From: a virus
Virus record (IMG/VR): IMGVR_UViG_3300012352_000501
Span: 1-31,006 of that record
Reading direction: 5' to 3' (one strand)
DNA: 31,006 nt
Under the pieces are notes generated by a model. It ran no database searches and had not been told where the DNA came from. It saw only the letters and a program-made list of their open reading frames with translations. The position numbers and the translations under genes are program-made. This document shows, one piece after another, positions 1 through 31,006 of this stretch. Position 1 is the stretch's first letter, and every line of letters starts with the position of its first letter.

Positions 1-55
1 AAAACTACAATTATGAACGTCTATAAATTCCAGTGATTTTAATTCTTTAAACTTT
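1..55. repeat. Terminal 55-nt exact direct repeat, copy 1 (circular-closure overlap)
   Basis: 1..55 (aaaactacaattatgaacg...ttctttaaacttt) is identical base for base to 30952..31006. Confidence 0.97.
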
Positions 56-1126: not shown

Positions 1127-1345
1127 ATGAATTATTTAAACCGAAAAGAGATTGGCGAAATAGCAAAGCTGTCCGAAAGGGCTATTCGCTCACGCTCCGA
1201 ACTTCTGGAGATTTTTCCTGACTATATATTAAAAGGAAAATATTATTATTGCCAAGAAAAGGCAAATGCAATAATCGCATACGTTAAATTCAACCCAAGA
1301 GCAAATTATTTAATCTTTGAATCAAAAATGAATTATGAAAATTAG
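1127..1345 (+). CDS. Small HTH-like protein
   Basis: The track ORF starts at TTG 1097, inside the promoter box. The first ATG at 1127 gives MNYLNRKEIGEIAKLSERAIRSR..., an HTH-like N-terminus. Confidence 0.6.
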   Translation: MNYLNRKEIGEIAKLSERAIRSRSELLEIFPDYILKGKYYYCQEKANAIIAYVKFNPRANYLIFESKMNYEN

Positions 1346-1709
1346 TCAACTACCTAAAGACGTGAGATTCAACGCAGAAACTTACAGACAAAACGCAAAC
1401 CAAACTATTTATGAAATTACTAGCGACGAATTAACTGACGCATTTAATTGGAATACTACTAAAGAGGGATATTATTATTGGAAAAAAATGTTCGATGCTC
1501 CTGCTTCCGAAAAGCCTGAGCAATATCAAATCGGAATCGATACTTTTGAACGTTCGGAAGCGAATATGACGAAAGAAGAAATTTTGGCTTGTTGTCGTTT
1601 TAATATCGATAAATATAACTGGAGAAAAAAAGACCAAGATCTGAGTGACTTTAAAAAAATTATTGACTATGCAAATTTCGCAATTAAACAAATCGAAAAA
1701 AATGACTGA
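1335..1709 (+). CDS. DUF3310-like phage protein
   Basis: The C-terminal half (GIDTFE...ACCRFNIDKYNWRKKDQDLSDFKKIIDYANFAI) fits the DUF3310 pattern as I remember it. Confidence 0.7.
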   Translation: MKISQLPKDVRFNAETYRQNANQTIYEITSDELTDAFNWNTTKEGYYYWKKMFDAPASEKPEQYQIGIDTFERSEANMTKEEILACCRFNIDKYNWRKKDQDLSDFKKIIDYANFAIKQIEKND

Positions 1710-2393: not shown

Positions 2394-4022
2394 ATGATTT
2401 TAAGATACTATCAGACCGAAATGATTCAATCTTTATTCGTTAATTTGAATGAATTTAATTCGGTTCTTTGTCAGTCGGCTACTGGATCTGGAAAGACAGT
2501 TATAATGTCGGAATTTATTCGTCAGTGGGTTTCTTTAAATCCTAATAAAAAGGTTCTAGTTTCGGTTCATCGTGACGAATTAGTAAATCAAACTTCACAA
2601 ACTCTTGCAAAATTCGGAATTTTAAATGAGAAAATCACCGCAAAATCGAAAAATGATTTTAAAACCGATGTCTATGTAGGAATGACGCAAACTATTTGGA
2701 GCCGAAAAACGTCTTTAGATATTGGGCTAATGATAATTGATGAGGCTCACGAGCAAATACATTTAAAAACGTTCGATTTATTTTCTAATTGTAAACGTGT
2801 AGGATTTACGGCCACCCCAATTATAAATAAAAGAATTACTTATTACAAATGTAATTACTGCAACCGAAAATATGACACTAGAGAAATATGCTGCTACAAC
2901 GAGCATGTAGATAAATGGGGTGCGCCAGTAACCATGAGCCAAACTTATGATAACATTATCACTGGGATTCCTATAAAAAAACTAATTGAAGAAGGTAGCC
3001 TTGTAGATGAGGTGATTTTTTCATACGATTATTATTCTGAATTAAAAGCTAAAGGCGATGACGATTTCGACGAAAACGAAATTGCTGAGGAATCAGTAAA
3101 GCACGATGATAATGTTTTACAGGAATACGAAGAAAAGGCGAAAGGAAAAAAGACAATGATTTTCACCGCTTCTACAAAACAGAATCTTTCTCTAGTTAAT
3201 ACGTTTAAGGATTATCAGATTAAATCATATGACTCTGTAAATAACGATTCTAGCGAACGCATAAAAGTAGTCGAATGGTTTAAAAATACAGACGGCGCAA
3301 TATTAGTTTCAACTGGTACATTCACTACTGGGTTTGACGTAAAAGAAGTGGAGTGTATAATTATAAACCGACCGACGAAATCTCTGTCTTTATGGCATCA
3401 AATAGTTGGTCGTGGTGCTAGAACTTCGGATTTGATTTTTAAGGATAATTTCATAGTCATAGATCTGGGTGGAAATGTTTCACGATTAGGTAAATGGTCA
3501 GACGAAATAGATTGGCGAGAAATATTTTTTAATGGATTAATTCCAGAAAAAAAGAAAAAAGAACTTTTAATTCAATGCGAAAAATGCGGATATAATTGGA
3601 TTGGACAGAACTCGGATAATTGCCCAGACTGCGGACATAAGAATCAACCGCAGATTAGAATACCAATTGGTGGAATCGGTGAGGAGCAAGAGAACGAAAG
3701 AGTTCAGATGACGACTACCGCATTAAACACGATTCCTATGCCTAATGGAAGGAAAATTGCTGAATTCGTAAAGAGAACTACAAATTCAAAAAACGATTAC
3801 TTTAAAATAATAATCGAAAAGTACATCGATTTATGGAAATTGAATCGTGTCCCAGTTACTATTTACGAAAGCCGAATTAAAAATGGAACTCTAGAGCCTA
3901 AAATTATGGAATATTTAAAAAAGAACTATGGATATGTGAACATGTTAGGTGAAGGAGTTCCGAGAACTTACAAATATTTGCTCGAAAAGATAAAGGAAAA
4001 GCTGAAAGCGTGTTTTATCTAA
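2394..4022 (+). CDS. Superfamily-2 DEAH-box DNA helicase with two zinc-ribbon inserts
   Basis: Motifs seen: RYYQ (Q motif), SATGSGKT (motif I), IIDEAHE (II), GFTATP (III), LVSTGTFTTGFDV (V) and QIVGRGAR (VI). There is a Cys cluster YYKCNYCN...CCYNEH between the lobes, a CEKCGYNW...CPDCGH ribbon after motif VI, and then a roughly 130-aa tail of unknown function. Confidence 0.9.
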   Translation: MILRYYQTEMIQSLFVNLNEFNSVLCQSATGSGKTVIMSEFIRQWVSLNPNKKVLVSVHRDELVNQTSQTLAKFGILNEKITAKSKNDFKTDVYVGMTQTIWSRKTSLDIGLMIIDEAHEQIHLKTFDLFSNCKRVGFTATPIINKRITYYKCNYCNRKYDTREICCYNEHVDKWGAPVTMSQTYDNIITGIPIKKLIEEGSLVDEVIFSYDYYSELKAKGDDDFDENEIAEESVKHDDNVLQEYEEKAKGKKTMIFTASTKQNLSLVNTFKDYQIKSYDSVNNDSSERIKVVEWFKNTDGAILVSTGTFTTGFDVKEVECIIINRPTKSLSLWHQIVGRGARTSDLIFKDNFIVIDLGGNVSRLGKWSDEIDWREIFFNGLIPEKKKKELLIQCEKCGYNWIGQNSDNCPDCGHKNQPQIRIPIGGIGEEQENERVQMTTTALNTIPMPNGRKIAEFVKRTTNSKNDYFKIIIEKYIDLWKLNRVPVTIYESRIKNGTLEPKIMEYLKKNYGYVNMLGEGVPRTYKYLLEKIKEKLKACFI

Positions 4023-4258
4023 AATCACTAAAAAAAGTTAAATGCTTGTAAATAAACGGTTTAAGTATTTTTTGTGTCGTATCGAATTAATAATTTGCAA
4101 AGTCTGTTGTGTAAAAAAAATGCAAAACAATAATTTTTTTTTTAAGTGTAACATCTAAAAAAATACGACATACGTCATATAAAAAATAAAACACCTTATT
4201 TTATTAAGTTTTTTTAAAAAAGTGTGTGATTTATGTGAATAATCACAAAAACATTTAG

Positions 4259-4266
4259 TACATTTA
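4259..4266 (+). promoter_or_regulatory. TAnnTTTA box placed 4 nt before an ATG (leaderless-type promoter candidate)
   Basis: tacatttaca-cc-ATG(4271). The same TAnnTTTACAnnATG arrangement occurs at 19371 and 27447. Confidence 0.4.
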
Positions 4267-4270
4267 CACC

Positions 4271-4561
4271 ATGGAAAATAGAATTAAACAAATTTTAAAG
4301 AAAAAGACCTGTAATTTATTTGCAGATGATTGGTATGATAACACATCATTTGAGATAAATTCTTTAATTGGAAATAAAAAACAATTAAAGTTTGAACCTA
4401 ACATTCGATATTGCTTGACAAAAGCATATTTAGAGAATGGAGATAATAGCATCTCAAGAAAGATGTTTACAATTCAAATACAAAAATATGCTATTGAAAA
4501 TGGCTATAAATTTGAATTTAATAGAACGCATGACTCAAGAGGATTTATTTTAAAAAATTAA
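4271..4561 (+). CDS. Hypothetical protein (96 aa), first gene of the AT-rich island
   Basis: ATG ORF in a very AT-rich stretch (13 G+C in its first 60 nt). Confidence 0.65.
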   Translation: MENRIKQILKKKTCNLFADDWYDNTSFEINSLIGNKKQLKFEPNIRYCLTKAYLENGDNSISRKMFTIQIQKYAIENGYKFEFNRTHDSRGFILKN

Positions 4562-4565
4562 AAAA

Positions 4566-5204
4566 ATGGAATTAAACAAATATTACAAATTACTAAATAA
4601 AATTGTAATTAAAGGAAAATTACAATCGGCTAAAAAAGCTAATAGTTATGGATTAATTAATCAAAAGTTAAGTTTTAATAAAAAACAATTAGAACATTTA
4701 TTTAGTGTTCACCCAATTGCAAAAACAAAGCTACGTGATGAGTTAAAATTGTATTTTGATGGTATTACTAATGTAAATGAATATAATAAGAATGGAATCA
4801 CATGGTGGGATTATTGTAAACCGGAATTAATTAATTCTTATCCAACTTACTTTAAAGATCTACCTAAATTGATAAATAAAATTAATACATTAAAACCATC
4901 AAAAAATTATGTTCTATTTATTGGTAACACATTAGCTGAAACAAATCAATTACCATGTTTAAGTTTGATGCAATTTCAAATTGTAAATAATAAAATCAAT
5001 ATTACTGTTTATCAAAGATCAGCAGATTGTAATTTAGGATTACCATCTGATCTTTATCAAATATATGTTATTAGTTCATTTATTAATTTACCATTAAATA
5101 ACATTACTTTTTTTATTGGTAATGCTCATATATATGAAAATAATATTGAACAAACAAAAAATTTATTAATTGGTAAACCATTTAAGTTTAATTTGAATGT
5201 CTAA
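4566..5204 (+). CDS. Divergent thymidylate synthase / dNMP hydroxymethylase-fold enzyme (short, 212 aa)
   Basis: LPCLSLMQFQIVNNKINITVYQRSADCNLGLPSDLYQIY aligns without gaps to E. coli ThyA [38 protein letters not shown]. The catalytic Cys, Arg166, Ser167 and Asp169 are conserved. GNAHIYENN aligns to GDTHLYSNH, and DELKLYF to HELLWFL. Confidence 0.8.
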   Translation: MELNKYYKLLNKIVIKGKLQSAKKANSYGLINQKLSFNKKQLEHLFSVHPIAKTKLRDELKLYFDGITNVNEYNKNGITWWDYCKPELINSYPTYFKDLPKLINKINTLKPSKNYVLFIGNTLAETNQLPCLSLMQFQIVNNKINITVYQRSADCNLGLPSDLYQIYVISSFINLPLNNITFFIGNAHIYENNIEQTKNLLIGKPFKFNLNV

Positions 5205-5343
5205 AAAAAAATATATAAAACCAAAAACATTAGAGGAATTAGATATTGAAAGAAAAAGATTATTAGTATATCAAAATGATAATAAAAGACTAAAAGAAAT
5301 TTCTGAATATTTAGACTTTATTTATTGGGGTATTAAAAAATAA
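5197..5343 (+). CDS. Possible 48-aa micro-ORF, last gene of the island
   Basis: ATG 5197 overlaps the upstream stop. Translation: MSKKKYIKPKTLEELDIERKRLLVYQNDNKRLKEISEYLDFIYWGIKK. It is below the track cut-off. Confidence 0.4.
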   Translation: MSKKKYIKPKTLEELDIERKRLLVYQNDNKRLKEISEYLDFIYWGIKK

Positions 5344-5347
5344 TTTA

Positions 5348-5355
5348 TATATTTG
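5348..5355 (+). promoter_or_regulatory. TAnnTTTG -7 box (TATATTTG) upstream of the primase leader
   Basis: The sequence tttatatatttgtaaac lies about 100 nt before ATG 5457. Confidence 0.5.
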
Positions 5356-5366
5356 TAAACTATTGG

Positions 5367-5442
5367 AGTGGTAGCCAATACTTAAAATTTTAAAAAGCCT
5401 CTGACATAGTACCACCTACCACTGGACTATCTCGGGGGCTTT
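5367..5442 (+). promoter_or_regulatory. Structured element: long imperfect hairpin whose apical loop is complementary to an upstream 8-mer
   Basis: 5394-5410 pairs with 5426-5442 (11 bp including 2 G.U, one C/C mismatch, then 5 bp), leaving a 15-nt loop accacctaccactgg. AGTGGTAG (5367-5374) is the exact complement of CTACCACT (5416-5423) in that loop. Confidence 0.5.
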
Positions 5443-5456
5443 ACTTCTAAAAAAAT

Positions 5457-7805
5457 ATGACAGTATCAATTTTTAAATCAGTAAAAGACCCAAATAATCC
5501 TTTTCATAAATCGATAGATTATGTTTTAAATAGGATTAGAAATGGAAATTCTAAAGATTTTATCGAACAACTCAGATCTATGAGCGATGAGGATTATAAC
5601 AAAAATAAATCTCAACTTCCAGGAACTTGTTTTAATGGTAAATTCAAAACTCGTTCAGCTTCGGGATTAATTCAGCACTCTGGATTTATCACTCTAGATT
5701 TCGATAAATTAAATTCTATTGAAGAAGCTATCGAGTTGAGAGATTCAATCAGCTCTGATGAGTTCGTTTACGCAGCTTGGATTTCTCCAAGTGGAAAAGG
5801 CATAAAGGTTCTAGTTAAAATACCAGCAGTGCCCGCAAATCATCGAGCATATTTTGAGGCTTTAGAAAAGCATTTTAATCATCATAGTTGGGACAAGTCT
5901 GGATCTGACGTTTCTCGTTTCTGCTTCGAATCTTACGACCCCGATATGTATGTAAATCCAGATTCATCAGTATGGATTGAAATGGAAGAGCCTAACATCG
6001 AAAACGTCGGAACAACAGAACCGATAGTGAGAATGACTTCTGATAATCAAATTATTGAAAAGTTACTAGTTTGGTGGGAAAAGAAATATGGTATGACTAT
6101 CGGAAAAAAGAACACGAATCTTTATATTTTAGCATCTGCATTTTATGATTTCGGAATCTCGAAAGATGACGCACTTCACGAATGCTTGAAGTTTGATTCT
6201 GGTGGGAAGGATAAAGAGATTTCGTCAATAGTCAAATCATCTTATAAAAAGAATACACCGCCAGGAACGAAACATTTTGAGGATAACGTAAAGAAAGAAA
6301 AAATCGAGAAATTAATTCGCTCGGGAAAAACGAAAAAAGAACTTGAAGAACAATTCGATGGAATTGATATTTCTTTACTGAAAGAGAATATCGATGTTGA
6401 TGAGTTTTGGTATTATACAGACAAGGGAAAAATAATGCTTTCAACGCATAAGTTTAAATTCTGGCTAGAGCAAAACAATTTCTTTAAATACTATCCAAGC
6501 GAAAACTCAAACACGTTCACTTTTATTAAGAAGGAGCAGAATATGATTGAGGAAACAAGCGACAAGCTGATTAAAGATTACGTTTTGAGTAATATTCTAG
6601 AGCGTGAGAATATCGGATATGGCCCATATGATTTTATGGCTTCGAATACTGGATATTTTAAACAAGAGTTTCTTTCGATGCTATCGACTACCGAAGTAAA
6701 AATAAAAGAGGACACTGCTTCTGACTGCTTCCTTTACTATAAAAATTGCGTTGTAAATATCAAGAAGGATTCAGTTAAAACTATTGACTACATCGACGTT
6801 GATGGATTAGTTTGGAAAAAACAAATAATAGATAGAGAATTTAAAACAGCAGACCACCACGAGGCTGTATTTAGAAAGTTCATTTGGTTAATTTCGGGAC
6901 AAGACGTACTAAAGTACAATTCTTTTAAATCAGTAATTGGGTACCTGCTTCATTCTTTTAAGACTTCGGCGAATAATAAAGCGATTGTTTTTAACGATGA
7001 AACTATTTCAGAGAATCCAAACGGTGGATCTGGGAAGGGATTATTTTGGAACGCTTTAAAAAATATGCGCAAGGTTTCTCGAATCGACGGAAAACAATTT
7101 AAACCAGATTCAGATTTCGCATATCAGATAGCGACACCCGATACTCAACTGCTAGTTTTCGACGACGTGAAAAAGAATTTTAAATTTGAGGATTTATTCT
7201 CATTAATTACGGAAGGAATAATCATAACGTATAAGGGGCAGACACCAATTACGTTACCAGTAGAGAAATCTCCAAAGATTCTAATCACTACAAATTATAC
7301 TCTAGGAGGTGTCGGTGGTTCTTTCGAAAGAAGAAAATTTGAAATAGAAATGAGCTCATATTTTAGTTACAAACATACACCGCTAGATGAGTTCGGACAT
7401 ATGCTTTTCTCTGACTGGTCGGAATCCGAATGGCTAAAGTTCGACAACTTTATGATTAACTGCGTTCAGTACTATCTTAAAAATGGATTGGTAAAACACG
7501 ATTTTAATAATCTCGAAGTAAGAAAGTTCATCAAAGAAACGTCATTTGAATTTTACGAATGGAGCCAAGATTTGGAAAATATGCCGATGAATATCAGACT
7601 TGATAAAGCGGAGCTGTTTACGAAATTCTGCAACGAATACCAAGACTACAAGAAATGGCTATCGCAAAAGAAATTTACTCAATGGCTAGAAGGTTTTGGA
7701 AAATATTACAAAATCGAATTTAATCAAGGAAGGAATCACACGATGAGATTCATCGAATATGTTACAGAAGAAAAAACAGAAGTAGAATCAGACATACCAT
7801 TTTAA
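5457..7805 (+). CDS. Primase / replicative NTPase fusion (BT4734/VirE-N-like primase domain + PriCT-like + P-loop NTPase)
   Basis: The N-terminus (GFITLDFDKL...AAWISPSGKGIKVLVKI...FCFESYDPDMYVNP) resembles the BT4734/VirE N-terminal primase domain. NTNLYILASAFYDFGISKDDAL is PriCT-like. Walker A is NPNGGSGKGLF and Walker B is LLVFDDV. Confidence 0.85.
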   Translation: MTVSIFKSVKDPNNPFHKSIDYVLNRIRNGNSKDFIEQLRSMSDEDYNKNKSQLPGTCFNGKFKTRSASGLIQHSGFITLDFDKLNSIEEAIELRDSISSDEFVYAAWISPSGKGIKVLVKIPAVPANHRAYFEALEKHFNHHSWDKSGSDVSRFCFESYDPDMYVNPDSSVWIEMEEPNIENVGTTEPIVRMTSDNQIIEKLLVWWEKKYGMTIGKKNTNLYILASAFYDFGISKDDALHECLKFDSGGKDKEISSIVKSSYKKNTPPGTKHFEDNVKKEKIEKLIRSGKTKKELEEQFDGIDISLLKENIDVDEFWYYTDKGKIMLSTHKFKFWLEQNNFFKYYPSENSNTFTFIKKEQNMIEETSDKLIKDYVLSNILERENIGYGPYDFMASNTGYFKQEFLSMLSTTEVKIKEDTASDCFLYYKNCVVNIKKDSVKTIDYIDVDGLVWKKQIIDREFKTADHHEAVFRKFIWLISGQDVLKYNSFKSVIGYLLHSFKTSANNKAIVFNDETISENPNGGSGKGLFWNALKNMRKVSRIDGKQFKPDSDFAYQIATPDTQLLVFDDVKKNFKFEDLFSLITEGIIITYKGQTPITLPVEKSPKILITTNYTLGGVGGSFERRKFEIEMSSYFSYKHTPLDEFGHMLFSDWSESEWLKFDNFMINCVQYYLKNGLVKHDFNNLEVRKFIKETSFEFYEWSQDLENMPMNIRLDKAELFTKFCNEYQDYKKWLSQKKFTQWLEGFGKYYKIEFNQGRNHTMRFIEYVTEEKTEVESDIPF

Positions 7806-7807
7806 TT

Positions 7808-8113
7808 ATGACGGAACATCAACTACAAATCAGCTGTATAGCTTTTTTCAGAAACAATATCACTAGAAAAGGATTAGGCATAATTATACCAGTACCGAAC
7901 GAGCTGGCACGTAAAAGAAAAGACGTGCCCGTTTGTTTAGGTTGCTCCGATACGATTCTTGTATTTAAAGGCAGAATCGTCTTCTGCGAATTTAAAGTTG
8001 GTAAAAATAATCAGCAAGAAATTCAAGTCGCTTTTCAAGAAGCGGTCCAGGAACTCGGATATGAATATCACGTAATTAAAACCATACAAGAATTTGAAAA
8101 CTTACTTCGCTAA
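7808..8113 (+). CDS. VRR-NUC domain nuclease
   Basis: GCSDTILVFKGRIVFCEFKVGKNNQQEIQVAFQEAVQELGYEYHVI matches the PD-(D/E)XK VRR-NUC pattern (D...E.K...Q). It sits near an SF2 helicase, as in many phages. Confidence 0.8.
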   Translation: MTEHQLQISCIAFFRNNITRKGLGIIIPVPNELARKRKDVPVCLGCSDTILVFKGRIVFCEFKVGKNNQQEIQVAFQEAVQELGYEYHVIKTIQEFENLLR

Positions 8114-8240
8114 AAATGGAAAGGAATTCAGACTTTGGTCAATCTATAATGACAACGGTTGGTGGTGTGAAGTTCTATGGATTGAAACTAATATTCGAGA
8201 GGTTTTTGATTTTAGTAAAGTTGAACCATATTTAAAATAA
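8094..8240 (+). CDS. Possible 48-aa ORF with no ATG (TTG start or +1 continuation of VRR-NUC)
   Basis: The frame is open from 8076 to 8240 and reads ...KTYFAKNGKEFRLWSIYNDNGWWCEVLWIETNIREVFDFSKVEPYLK. By hand count its third positions are 10/41 G/C, against 16/39 for the competing ATG ORF 8116..8235. Confidence 0.35.
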   Translation: MKTYFAKNGKEFRLWSIYNDNGWWCEVLWIETNIREVFDFSKVEPYLK

Positions 8241-8275
8241 TTAAACAAAAGTTTTTTTTATTGAAATAATAGTTT

Positions 8276-8283
8276 TATATTTG
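8276..8283 (+). promoter_or_regulatory. TAnnTTTG -7 box within the 12-mer TTATATTTGTCC
   Basis: agttttatatttgtcc. The same 12-mer recurs at 9898-9909. It lies 31 nt before ATG 8314. Confidence 0.6.
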
Positions 8284-8313
8284 TCCCATCAAACAATTAA
8301 AAAAATAAAAACC

Positions 8314-8526
8314 ATGAAAAAACAATTAGAAATTTTAAACGCAATTCAGCTCAATTTAGATTTATTTTATGTAGTATCTTTAGAAGTAGGCAGAATCAGA
8401 TTACAAGGCGAAGCAAATCCAGAATCAATTTCTCAAGCCAAAAAATTTGTAGAATTAGTTTTCGACAACGAACACGGTTGGTTAGCTGGAAAAAATGATT
8501 TTATTTCTATAACTTTAACATTTTAG
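8314..8526 (+). CDS. Hypothetical protein (70 aa)
   Basis: The track start at 8281 is a TTG inside the promoter box. The first ATG at 8314 (MKKQLEILNAIQ...) is preferred. Confidence 0.65.
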   Translation: MKKQLEILNAIQLNLDLFYVVSLEVGRIRLQGEANPESISQAKKFVELVFDNEHGWLAGKNDFISITLTF

Positions 8527-8530
8527 TATT

Positions 8531-8623
8531 ATGAAAAAATTTCTTCAAAAATCAGAGTACCAAATCGCATTCGCATTCTTTGCGGCAATGTATTTTTTAT
8601 TACAAATAATTTTTAGATATTAA
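8531..8623 (+). CDS. Possible 30-aa hydrophobic micro-ORF
   Basis: Translation: MKKFLQKSEYQIAFAFFAAMYFLLQIIFRY. It fills the gap between two genes and contains one hydrophobic helix. Confidence 0.3.
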   Translation: MKKFLQKSEYQIAFAFFAAMYFLLQIIFRY

Positions 8624-8627
8624 AACC

Positions 8628-8927
8628 ATGGCAATAGATACCTACAACAACGAACCAGGTTACTTCGATAAATTAGAAAAACCTGAAACTGATTACAGAA
8701 CCGAAATCGAAGTTCTTGAGGATTACGTCAAAGACACTTTTAATGACGATGAACTGACGGCTTTAGTCGATTCAATTAAAATGCGCTCAATACTTATTTC
8801 GAGAACGAACGACAGAATCAATAAAATCGAATCAGATCTAGCAACGTTTGGAAATATCAGCTCAGATGATAGAATCGAATTAGCACAAAGAAAATTATTG
8901 CTAACCAAGTTAATTCAAGATTTATGA
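8628..8927 (+). CDS. Hypothetical protein (99 aa)
   Basis: ATG ORF with an ATGA stop/start overlap with the next gene. Confidence 0.7.
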   Translation: MAIDTYNNEPGYFDKLEKPETDYRTEIEVLEDYVKDTFNDDELTALVDSIKMRSILISRTNDRINKIESDLATFGNISSDDRIELAQRKLLLTKLIQDL

Positions 8928-9358
8928 ATATTTTCTATCTAGATTCAGACCCAGTAAAAGCCGCAGAGCAACATTACAATAAACACGTCGTGAAAATGGT
9001 AATAGAAGCAGCGCAACTATTATGCACCGCTCATCATATCGAAGGCGATGGAAATGTTCCGTATAAAAAGACACATATTAACCACCCATCAGCTGTTTGG
9101 GTACGTTCTTCAGTAGAAAATTATATGTGGTGCTATAATTATATGCTAGCACTTGGCGACGAATACACGAAGCGATACGGCAGAAATCATTTAACGATAG
9201 AAAAGTGCAAAGAAATTCTTTCTTTCGCTCCGCATAAAGTTACAAGGTTCGGATTTACAGATCCACCGCAATGTATGCCAGACGAATATAAATCGTCAGA
9301 TACAATCGAAGCATATCAGAAATATTATCAAATCGGCAAAGCCCACTTAAAAAATTAA
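8924..9358 (+). CDS. Conserved phage protein of unknown function (144 aa)
   Basis: The N-terminal FYLDSDPVKAAEQHYNKHVVKMVIEAAQLL motif looks like a widespread phage/viral family that I cannot name with confidence. Confidence 0.7.
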   Translation: MNIFYLDSDPVKAAEQHYNKHVVKMVIEAAQLLCTAHHIEGDGNVPYKKTHINHPSAVWVRSSVENYMWCYNYMLALGDEYTKRYGRNHLTIEKCKEILSFAPHKVTRFGFTDPPQCMPDEYKSSDTIEAYQKYYQIGKAHLKN

Positions 9359-29102: not shown

Positions 29103-30260
29103 ATGTCAAAATGGTCGATTTACGATAATGATTTGCTCGAATCATTACAGAAAAACAAAGAAATAAATCAAAGCGAACTAGCGAAGTCAATATTTAGAAA
29201 GTATAATCTTGAATTTACTTCTAATGAAACGGAAGCCCTAGCGAAGTACATAAATAGAAACAGAAAAAGGTTTCTTGACGAATACGAAGGAACATATGAT
29301 GCAACTAATTCGCTTGACGTGGATAATACTAGCGTAAAACATATGTGGATTAAGAACAAAGAGGCTTCACTTTTCGTAAAAAATCCAAATTATATCGAGC
29401 AGGAGCTGACTAAAATCTCAGATCTAAAATCTGACTTGATAAAAGACTTACAAGAGTATTCGCCAAAGTTCGTAAAACTAGAAAGGGTTGAGAATAAAGA
29501 AAGCTATTTGCTAATAATTGACCCAGCTGATATTCATATCGGAAAACTGGCTTCTGCTTTCGAATCTGGAGAGAGTTATGATAATCAAATCGCAGTTCAG
29601 CGTGTATTGAGCGGTGTGATTGGAATATTAAACAAGGTTTCGTCTTTCTCTATTGATAAAATAGTTTTTATCGGTGGTAACGATATTTTGCACGTTGATA
29701 ATCCTCAGCGAACTACGACTAGTGGAACACCGCAAGATACTGACGGAATGTGGCACTCTAATTTTTTAATCGCTAAAAATTTATACACGAATATTATCGA
29801 AATGTTGCTTCCTATCGCAGACGTTCATTTTGTTTTTAATCCTTCAAATCACGATTACACGAATGGCTACTTCCTGGCCCAAGTAATTCAGACGTATTTT
29901 AGGAATTCTGAAAATGTTACTTTCGATTGTAGTATTTCGCACAGGAAATATTTTACTTATGGAAATAATTTAATTGGAACTACACACGGAGATGGTGCGA
30001 AGGTTACAGATCTGCCTTTATTAATGGCGCACGAGGCTGTAGATTGGAGCAAATGCAAACATAGGTATATTTATACTCATCACGTGCATCATAAAAACAG
30101 CAAGGATTACATGGGAGTTTGCGTTGAAAGTCTGAGAAGCCCTAGCGGAACAGATTCGTGGCATCACAGAAACGGATATCAGCATGCTCCGAAAGCAGTG
30201 GAGGCTTTTCTTCACTCTAAAGATTTTGGGCAAATCGCTAGAATAACTCATATTTTTTAA
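29103..30260 (+). CDS. Calcineurin-like metallophosphoesterase (Mre11/SbcD-type nuclease or phosphatase) with an about 130-aa N-terminal extension
   Basis: Motifs appear in the canonical order: IIDPADIHIG (DxH), FIGGNDILH (GD), FNPSNHDY (GNHD/E), GTTHGDG (H) and YTHHVHHK (GHxH). Confidence 0.75.
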   Translation: MSKWSIYDNDLLESLQKNKEINQSELAKSIFRKYNLEFTSNETEALAKYINRNRKRFLDEYEGTYDATNSLDVDNTSVKHMWIKNKEASLFVKNPNYIEQELTKISDLKSDLIKDLQEYSPKFVKLERVENKESYLLIIDPADIHIGKLASAFESGESYDNQIAVQRVLSGVIGILNKVSSFSIDKIVFIGGNDILHVDNPQRTTTSGTPQDTDGMWHSNFLIAKNLYTNIIEMLLPIADVHFVFNPSNHDYTNGYFLAQVIQTYFRNSENVTFDCSISHRKYFTYGNNLIGTTHGDGAKVTDLPLLMAHEAVDWSKCKHRYIYTHHVHHKNSKDYMGVCVESLRSPSGTDSWHHRNGYQHAPKAVEAFLHSKDFGQIARITHIF

Positions 30261-30616: not shown

Positions 30617-31006
30617 TGTTTGTTTTGTTTTAATTTATTAATATACTCATTTTTAATTTCTACTGCTTGTTCAATTCTCGATTTCATTAGTTCTTGAACT
30701 TCTTCATCCGCTTCTAATTCGATAGTATGATAAAATTCGGTTCCATCGATTACTATATAGTTGAAGAAATAGGCTTTTTTCCTTCCTGTACACATCATCT
30801 GCATTTGCATTTGATAGTAATATGGTTTTGAAATTTCTTCTTCTGCCACTAGTCTAAAAAAGTTGCTATTTTTAGGGCATTTTATTTCTAAAATTGCATC
30901 TGTTCCAACTAATCCGTCTGGAGATGCGCCTGAGTTTTCGTCGTGTTCGAAAAAACTACAATTATGAACGTCTATAAATTCCAGTGATTTTAATTCTTTA
31001 AACTTT
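30607..31006 (-). CDS. YqaJ-like exonuclease, C-terminal part (same gene as 1..276)
   Basis: The frame is open upstream of the track ORF start. It reads ...FEHDENSGASPDGLVGTDAILEIKCPKNSNFFRLVAEEEISKPYYYQMQMQMMCTGRKKAYF..., with the SPDG, EIKCP and YxxQxQxQM motifs of the YqaJ/lambda-Exo fold. The whole gene is 621 nt (206 aa). Confidence 0.85.
   Translation of the reverse strand, partial: KFKELKSLEFIDVHNCSFFEHDENSGASPDGLVGTDAILEIKCPKNSNFFRLVAEEEISKPYYYQMQMQMMCTGRKKAYFFNYIVIDGTEFYHTIELEADEEVQELMKSRIEQAVEIKNEYINKLKQNKQWK
30952..31006. repeat. Terminal 55-nt exact direct repeat, copy 2
   Basis: Identical to 1..55. An open reading frame runs through it in phase with the other window end. Confidence 0.97.

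Follow-up and report, generated by a model that had tools for sequence, protein, structure and literature searches.

The viral DNA of IMG/VR record IMGVR_UViG_3300012352_000501 (positions 1–31,006, hereafter the window, meaning the whole stretch of 31,006 nucleotides that was analysed) carries on its plus strand, at 4566–5204, a gene for a compact enzyme of the thymidylate synthase (ThyA) fold, and every computational test that was run agrees in supporting a protein directed at cytosine, not uracil. Judged from its residues, the protein is probably, though by no means certainly, a folate-dependent C5-methylase or C5-hydroxymethylase of deoxycytidine monophosphate (dCMP), which would make 5-methyl-dCMP or 5-hydroxymethyl-dCMP. 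Phage ThyA homologues redirected to cytosine are a known kind; what appears to be new is an unusually compact, uncharacterised variant whose residues fall outside the published product code. The gene and the residues on which the argument turns are as follows.

4566–5204, plus strand: gene with ATG start for the compact ThyA-fold enzyme, 212 residues (Pfam, PHROG, AlphaFold, Foldseek, hhalign)
4899–4907, plus strand: Ser112-Lys113-Asn114, in place of the ThyA phosphate clamp S125-R126-R127
4947–4949, plus strand: Gln128, at -3 from the catalytic Cys (E. coli Leu143, T4 gp42 Asp145; hhalign register)
4956–4958, plus strand: catalytic nucleophile Cys131 (E. coli Cys146), in the invariant motif N-Q-L-P-C
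5016–5027, plus strand: Arg151-Ser152-Ala153-Asp154 (E. coli R166-S167-C168-D169)
5049–5051, plus strand: Asp162, the base-specificity position (E. coli Asn177, T4 gp42 Asp179; HMMER, hhalign and MAFFT alignments)

The product of this open reading frame (ORF) is predicted with confidence to belong to the ThyA-fold superfamily. It matched Pfam PF00303 (Thymidylat_synt) over residues 5–207 (E 7.7e-20, 71.6 bits, cut-off 24.3) and phrog_160 (E 1.7e-25), and more than 100 solved ThyA chains were matched, the best at E 1e-11. An AlphaFold model built on 81 relatives reached a predicted local distance difference test (pLDDT) of 94 and a predicted template modelling score (pTM) of 0.90, and Foldseek paired it with solved ThyA from Elizabethkingia, M. 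tuberculosis and E. coli at template modelling (TM) scores of 0.82–0.85 (E about 1e-15); in a viral structure library, T4-type gp42 proteins ranked far below. Using hhalign, the family profile aligned to E. coli ThyA with 97.9% probability over 203 columns and to T4 gp42 weakly, with 20.6% probability over 69 columns. This is the profile and structure check against ThyA that an earlier sequence-only reading of the window had proposed, and it bears out the 212-residue ThyA-fold frame which that reading had placed here.

Residue equivalences rest on sequence and profile alignments (HMMER, MAFFT and hhalign), all of which agree on the register. HMMER alignments to solved ThyA chains set 'yqrsadcnlglpsdl' opposite 'YQRSADIFLGVPFNI', and hhalign gave the same register, so the equivalence of Asp162 with Asn177 does not depend on gap placement. 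Two claims of the sequence-only reading hold in this register: the 20-residue spacing from the catalytic Cys to Arg166 is that from Cys131 to Arg151 (codon 5016–5018), and the Asp said to stand eleven residues further on, in LGLPSD against the LGLPFN of ThyA, is Asp162.

The catalytic and folate-activating residues are all retained (C131, E59, R151, S152, D154, Y95, H188 and Y190), and C131, R151, E59, D154, H188 and Y190 (E. coli Cys, Arg166, Glu58, Asp169, His207 and Tyr209) are invariant in the family. In the stretch from Arg151 to Asp154, the Arg that binds phosphate, the Ser that gates for deoxyribose and the Asp that binds the pterin are all retained, roles that were taken from PMC5175136 and PMC13326640. 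By hhalign, Gln150 corresponds to E. coli Gln165 and P93-T94-Y95 to E. coli P92-V93-Y94, the latter with moderate certainty since MAFFT can place the gaps of this loop in more than one way.

Other parts of the site are altered. The S-R-R phosphate clamp, which in ThyA is donated by the partner subunit, is replaced by S112-K113-N114, as had been read earlier, and K113 and N114 are invariant. The equivalents of the four clamp arginines R21, R126', R127' and R166 are K24, K113, N114 and R151. The sequence-only reading could find no Arg21-type motif; the Arg itself is indeed replaced, but the position can be located and is occupied by an invariant Lys24, as in T4 gp42. The ThyA residues His147, Leu143, Trp83 and Phe176 have L132, Q128, C84 and S161 as equivalents. 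The C-terminus is about 32 residues shorter than in E. coli ThyA, and the Cys is followed by 81 residues, where gp42 has 98 and E. coli ThyA 118.

The specificity for cytosine is argued from Asp162 and the residues that vary with it. Asp162 is invariant in 122 of 122 sequences (the query, the Hankyphage protein and the 120 best matches) and throughout the 81-sequence alignment. As cited in PMC8670742, PMC13326640 and PMC6400193, the N177D change in E. coli ThyA (N229D in L. casei thymidylate synthase) turns the preference to dCMP, and Asp179 of T4 gp42 has a role in specificity. Among full-length representatives at 50% identity, Asn177 occurred together with His147 and Leu at -3 in 24 of 25, Asp177 occurred with a residue other than His at 147 in 34 of 36, and the combined 177/147 rule held in 58 of 61; the ThyA-like protein has Leu132 at the 147-equivalent position. 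In the MetaGPA study, positions 177 and 147 were those which best separated thymidylate synthase homologues on phage contigs found by experiment to carry modified cytosine from those on unmodified ones (PMC8670742), a result that the covariation reproduces on independent data. All NCBIfam thymidylate synthase equivalog models scored far below cut-off (best 59.2 bits against 327; TIGR03284 53.9 against 108.35), which by equivalog criteria would leave the protein in the superfamily without being a true thymidylate synthase. The Asn177 of canonical ThyA, and of a deoxyuridine monophosphate (dUMP) hydroxymethylase of the SPO1 gp29 type, is replaced by Asp162. A cytosine-directed (dCMP) enzyme, as first suggested from the Asp, is thus supported by its invariance, the 177/147 covariation, the sub-cut-off equivalog scores and the retained catalytic residues.

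These residues define a clade. A protein search returned 1,486 matches at E ≤ 1e-5, of which the best 120 are all 210–217 residues long and 60–99% identical. Invariant or nearly so in the 122-sequence set and the 81-sequence alignment are E59, W81, C84, Y95, K113, N114, Q128, P130, C131, L132, Q150, R151, S152, D154, G158, H188 and Y190. The members are compact (about 211 residues), occur in phages and prophages of Bacteroidota, and share Gln at -3, SKN for SRR, small residues at 83 and 176 and the absence of the C-terminal tail; in detail, Cys is found at 83, Ser, Ala or Cys at 176, K/R-N for R-R, and 79–98 residues after the Cys. Among cultured phages, relatives (52% identity, annotated as 'thymidylate synthase') come only from Bacteroides Hankyphage p00 and the temperate Bacteroides phages related to it; the Hankyphage protein (DAC76694.1) has the same length and signature residues. 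About 190 IMG/VR stretches encode a clade member, including a sister phage (L011) whose protein is 99% identical. In GTDB, taken at one genome per species, at least 132 genomes encode one, almost all of them Bacteroidota (Flavobacterium, Chryseobacterium, Pedobacter, Sphingobacterium, Prevotella, Muribaculaceae and other Bacteroidales). The chromosome of a Flavobacterium metagenome-assembled genome, CP051546.1, holds three distant ThyA-like copies (L097, L103 and L108), a pattern that would fit several copies of a transposable Mu-like prophage.

When 1.84 billion representatives at 50% identity were scanned exhaustively with HMMER, 21 fell in the compact clade at E ≤ 1e-30, many of them fragments; beyond it the matches passed gradually to longer Asp177 proteins and from these to canonical ThyA. 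By diagnostic residues the Asp177 proteins fall into three groups: a ThyA-like one, presumably of methylases, in which Leu stands at -3, residues 83 and 176 are aromatic, the clamp is R-R and the C-terminus is complete; a T4 gp42-like one with Asp at -3; and the compact clade with Gln at -3. Three full-length Asp177 homologues of 266–289 residues (P0181, P0214 and P0253) have Gln at -3 yet keep the C-terminal region, which makes Gln at -3 an undescribed signature that extends more widely and does not depend on truncation.

The -3 position has been reported to separate methyl from hydroxymethyl products (PMC6400193, PMC13326640). For the enzyme of the window, 5-methyl-dCMP is put forward tentatively, at a little under an even chance; 5-hydroxymethyl-dCMP is possible and is rated lower, and something else would be unlikely. 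The evidence ends where the sequence-only reading, which hedged between the methyl and the hydroxymethyl product, had also stopped.

In favour of the methyl product, the acidic -3 residue is absent and the -3 amide resembles that of phage PaMx74, which together with its Xanthomonas-phage relatives was used as a stand-in for the Xp12-type 5-methylcytosine (5mC) system. The dCMP methyltransferase of PaMx74 and the ThyA-like protein have in common the ThyA fold, Asp177, a residue other than His at 147 and Asp169. Positions 177, 147 and -3 read D, P and N in PaMx74 and D162, L132 and Q128 here, in keeping with the Xp12/PaMx74 type, and both motifs carry an amide at -3 (N-V-P-C and Q-L-P-C). The PaMx74 enzyme is full-length, however (298 residues, with F at 83, Y at 176, an R-R clamp and a full C-terminal tail of 124 residues after the Cys), whereas the ThyA-like protein has C84, S161 and a shortened C-terminus. 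No gene that uses a hydroxymethyl group was present in any of the neighbourhoods examined. One relative, P0060 (64% identical), has a dCMP-deaminase-family gene 19 nucleotides downstream (L003–L005), and an adjacent deaminase is likewise found in PaMx74. Where a ThyA-like gene and a deaminase are so arranged, five of seven tested Asp177 homologues made 5-methyl-dCMP, and the deaminase converts 5-methyl-deoxycytidine triphosphate (5-methyl-dCTP) to deoxythymidine triphosphate (dTTP; bioRxiv 10.1101/2024.12.05.627091).

In favour of the hydroxymethyl product, Trp83, Leu143, Phe176 and the entire C-terminal tail are lost. C-terminally truncated ThyA loses the formation of deoxythymidine monophosphate (dTMP). 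These residues and the tail close the ThyA site for hydride transfer (PMC6400193). Against overweighting the truncation, NCBIfam TIGR03283 describes short archaeal thymidylate synthases with a model of 201 positions. T4 gp42 resembles the ThyA-like protein in having Asp as its specificity residue, Lys in place of Arg21 and a small residue at 83, and in lacking a ThyA-type tail (PMC6400193). A hydroxymethylase signature of an acidic -3 residue with a Ser/Thr-x-Tyr water-holding motif has been proposed, and in gp42 Asp145 and Ser-x-Tyr are said to be needed for water activation (PMC6400193); the ThyA-like protein has Gln and Pro-Thr-Tyr instead. Membership of the gp42 family was rejected on the absence of the acidic -3 residue and of Ser-x-Tyr and on the 20.6% hhalign probability, and no phage hydroxymethylase comes as close to the protein as canonical ThyA does.

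Two further types of product or substrate were compared. The 5-hydroxy-dCMP synthases RB69 gp48 and DLP3 gp80 share the ThyA fold and Asp177, but they have D169N, an acidic -3 residue and a flavin- and O2-dependent reaction, D169N being the published mark of these flavin-dependent enzymes (PMC13326640). This mark is absent from the ThyA-like protein, which has an invariant Asp154 and Gln at -3, and the assignment was rejected. In the study of MilA, Ser167 excludes ribonucleotides, and a change of Arg126' to Lys helps to admit them (PMC5175136). The ThyA-like protein resembles MilA and BcmA in its invariant Lys113 at the Arg126' position; unlike them it keeps Ser152, with no Ala for Ser167 (PMC5175136), so that a MilA-type enzyme for cytidine monophosphate (CMP) is not supported and a deoxyribose substrate, dCMP, is still to be expected. 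The nearest engineered counterparts, E. coli ThyA N177D and L. casei N229D, carry the Asp on a canonical ThyA scaffold and are described as dCMP methylases in the work cited by PMC8670742; the clade differs from these mutants in being natural and in having H147L, L143Q, W83C, F176S, an altered clamp and about 32 fewer C-terminal residues.

The gene stands in a replication module. The first 55 nucleotides of the window (1–55) are identical to the last 55 (30952–31006), so the assembly closes on itself, and the window is a complete, circularly closed phage genome of about 30,951 bp with a G+C content of about 34%. All ORFs were scanned against PHROGs and Pfam, and the following genes are relevant here.

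1335–1709, plus strand: DUF3310 protein of 124 residues, candidate T7 gp1.7-like nucleotide kinase (Pfam, PHROG, BLASTP)
2394–4022: SNF2/DEAD helicase (PHROGs/Pfam scan)
5457–7805: BT4734-type primase/helicase (PHROGs/Pfam scan)
29103–30260: exonuclease (PHROGs/Pfam scan)

The ThyA-like gene has the helicase on one side and the primase on the other. Further genes encode a large terminase, a portal protein, a protease, a tape-measure-like protein, a tail fibre, an endolysin, a single-stranded DNA-binding protein and small ORFs of unknown function. The scans of the complete genome found no DNA polymerase, integrase, DNA methyltransferase, deoxycytidine triphosphatase (dCTPase), deaminase, dihydrofolate reductase (DHFR) or glycosyltransferase. 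T4 itself supplies a deoxynucleoside monophosphate (dNMP) kinase, a dCTPase and glucosyltransferases, and a set of this type is missing from the window phage. None of the neighbours of the PaMx74 gene, which encode a deaminase, a pyrophosphohydrolase and DHFR, is present either, nor is a DNA polymerase such as PaMx74 has. The earlier statement that neither a dCTPase nor a glycosyltransferase is visible therefore stands; the statement that there is no dNMP kinase was too strong, since a T4-type dNMP kinase was indeed not found but the DUF3310 protein is a candidate. It scored 25.4 bits against Pfam DUF3310 (cut-off 24) and 1.7e-09 to 1e-04 against PHROG 'nucleotide kinase' families, and by BLASTP it is 30% identical over 79 residues (E 5e-4) to the C-terminal part of gp1.7, the nucleotide kinase of T7. 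As a weak link, it could tentatively be assigned the phosphorylation of modified dCMP; it is present only in the window phage and L011, and is therefore at most an optional helper.

We infer substrate, product, incorporation and benefit as follows. A dimeric, methylene-tetrahydrofolate-dependent enzyme of the thymidylate synthase fold would act on dCMP instead of dUMP, with Cys131 attacking C6 of the cytosine ring, Asp162 reading and protonating the N3/N4 face, and Glu59 and Asp154 activating and holding the folate. A one-carbon unit would be added at C5, giving 5-methyl-dCMP or 5-hydroxymethyl-dCMP, which host kinases, and possibly the phage DUF3310 protein, would raise to the triphosphate. 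The host replicase is proposed to incorporate the modified nucleotide into phage DNA because the phage is without a DNA polymerase of its own; with neither a dCTPase nor a phage polymerase, replacement of cytosine would be expected to be partial, and probably is. The likely benefit would be escape from restriction.

Companion genes were sought in the neighbourhoods of about 160 loci with flanks of 6–10 kb. Replication genes surround the gene in the window and in its closer relatives, where it is usually the sole gene of nucleotide metabolism. Clustering of the neighbours gave replication, regulatory and structural genes as the only common ones, with the exception of an adenine methyltransferase. 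A D12-class (Dam-like) N6-adenine DNA methyltransferase gene directly abuts the ThyA-like gene in 68 of 157 prophage or viral loci, and the true fraction is higher since many of the remaining loci end at the ThyA-like gene. The pair occurs in both gene orders, mostly with overlaps of 4 or 8 nucleotides, and was seen in L048–L090 and L094–L173 (for example L077 10636–11496 and L089 9127–10008). Prophages of the Hankyphage type carry the ThyA-like gene at their right end, beside the Dam-like methyltransferase gene, unlike the window, where it sits in the replication module of a genome without a methyltransferase. That the pairing outlasts a swap of gene order suggests a role in common, the simplest being counter-defence by DNA modification. 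The Hankyphage group has been reported across 52 host species (PMC12629997), a range that counter-defence would suit. In L064 (9578–10645) the methyltransferase frame reads without a stop into the ThyA-like frame, giving a 355-residue ORF, and an upstream stop codon interrupts the N-terminus of the methyltransferase; a true fusion, gene decay or an error of sequencing could each account for this.

Homologues of T4 gp1, gp56 and beta-glucosyltransferase and of the PaMx74 DHFR and hydrolase were not found near any family member in these loci. The search for homologues of the PaMx74 deaminase and of C5 methyltransferases returned only the deaminase of L003–L005 and the methyltransferases of L008. 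The former (L003 10655–11095, also in L004 and L005) is the gene 19 nucleotides past the ThyA-like gene on a contig of at least 65 kb; it partially matches the NCBIfam anti-phage dCTP deaminase model, and the arrangement matches that described for 5mC-selective dCTP deaminases. In L008 (11562–13490) an N6/N4 methyltransferase and a C5 cytosine DNA methyltransferase are encoded 1–3 kb downstream of a family member.

Several points weigh against a dCMP methylase or hydroxymethylase whose product enters phage DNA. Gln128 at -3 fits neither the Leu of methylases nor the Asp or Glu of hydroxymethylases, and the phosphate clamp is weakened (R21K, R126K and R127N). To our knowledge, several of the companion genes that the complete window genome is without (dCTPase, T4-type dNMP kinase, deaminase, DHFR, DNA polymerase and glycosyltransferase) are present in every well-studied full-replacement system, for example PaMx74. 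Were 5mC to replace cytosine fully, the C5 methyltransferase of L008 would be superfluous. The T4 D145N mutant makes no 5-hydroxymethyl-dCMP (PMC6400193). The literature searched holds no results on activity or DNA composition for any clade member, and the Hankyphage papers mention neither the ThyA-like gene nor base modification.

The rival that survives best, though it is unlikely, is a dCMP methylase whose product is not kept in DNA but becomes dTMP or dTTP through a dCMP/dCTP deaminase of host or phage, a by-pass supply of thymidylate. Deaminases that make dTTP from 5-methyl-dCTP are documented in 5mC phages, and the route has been proposed for Xp12 (bioRxiv 10.1101/2024.12.05.627091); the deaminase-family gene beside one family member, the AT-rich window and the placement of the gene between helicase and primase would all suit it. 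The documented routes, however, accompany full 5mC replacement and do not substitute for it, and a deaminase is absent within 10 kb in 157 other loci and from the complete window genome. Pairing with an adenine methyltransferase fits DNA modification better than pool balancing, and an ordinary Asn177 ThyA would serve more simply.

An ordinary thymidylate synthase converting dUMP to dTMP, as the databases annotate it, with the Asp tolerated through compensating changes in the pocket, is somewhat less likely still. The closest matches in sequence and structure are canonical ThyA and not T4 gp42, Gln150 and the P-T-Y motif around the catalytic Tyr are ThyA-like, the gene's usual isolation from other nucleotide-metabolism genes is the typical pattern of an auxiliary phage ThyA, and there is a model of short archaeal ThyA, TIGR03283. 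Set against this are the switch to dCMP reported for E. coli and L. casei ThyA with the Asn177Asp change in the secondary accounts cited above, an invariant Asp that goes, in the pattern of modified-cytosine contigs, with the loss of His147, scores far under the equivalog cut-offs, and the loss of Trp83, Phe176, Leu143, the C-terminal tail and two clamp arginines.

Action on another cytosine substrate (CMP, deoxycytidine di- or triphosphate, or cytosine in a polynucleotide) or a product beyond methyl and hydroxymethyl is quite improbable: the phosphate site is remodelled clade-wide (K24, K113 and N114 for three arginines), the Lys at the Arg126 position is that of the CMP-preferring MilA and BcmA (PMC5175136), lid residues and tail are missing from the active site, the -3 Gln lies outside the published product classes, and flavin-dependent 5-hydroxylation makes unexpected chemistry in this fold possible (PMC13326640), but Ser152, the main ribose gate in the MilA study (PMC5175136), is kept, as are Arg151 and Asp154, the hydroxylase mark is absent, and neither His188 nor Tyr190, the pair that binds a mononucleotide by its free 3'-OH, varies. 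The suggestion in the sequence-only reading that the substrate may differ further is accordingly not borne out, as the clamp change is clade-wide, Ser152 is kept and positive support for a substrate other than dCMP was not found. We know of no ThyA-fold enzyme that acts on polynucleotides.

Returning to the cytosine-modifying enzyme, Asp177 phage ThyA homologues are an entry to DNA cytosine modification, which shields phage DNA from restriction enzymes and from clustered regularly interspaced short palindromic repeats (CRISPR) systems, and they have already been a source of useful enzymes. The clade is widespread: its members are encoded in over 130 species genomes of Bacteroidota and on about 190 IMG/VR contigs, with many also among metagenome proteins, and it includes Hankyphage, among the commonest prophages of human gut Bacteroides. 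A broader proposal, which we hold to be doubtful, is that one stripped-down ThyA derivative suffices for small, often temperate, polymerase-less Bacteroidota phages, including Hankyphage with its global abundance and broad host range, to obtain modified cytosine through host kinases and the host replicase alone, and that in prophages it forms a two-gene counter-defence cassette with the Dam-like methyltransferase; in its stronger form, the signature of Gln at -3 and the K/N clamp would mark a product or substrate outside methyl, hydroxymethyl and hydroxy. If one enzyme did serve with no dedicated kinase, dCTPase or polymerase, this would be the smallest known pre-replicative modification system, and it would change how the DNA of gut prophages is read in modification-sensitive sequencing, host-range studies and phage engineering. 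For the question of which residues set hydride transfer or water addition in the ThyA fold, the clade offers a natural experiment.

A nucleotide search of the phage collection with window positions 3000–9000 returned no matches; the phage is without a close cultured relative. The small ORFs flanking the ThyA-like gene (4271–4561 and 5197–5343) are conserved beside it only in the sister phage L011, and were rejected as its partners since they are not conserved beyond that phage. Elsewhere in the window, at 8924–9358 on the plus strand, a protein of 144 residues matched phrog_624 ('DNA binding protein'); a search of PDB sequences with it gave no matches, its match to the Pfam pyrimidine-dimer DNA glycosylase family is weak and sub-threshold, and a 38%-identical homologue is gp16 of the 5mC phage PaMx74.

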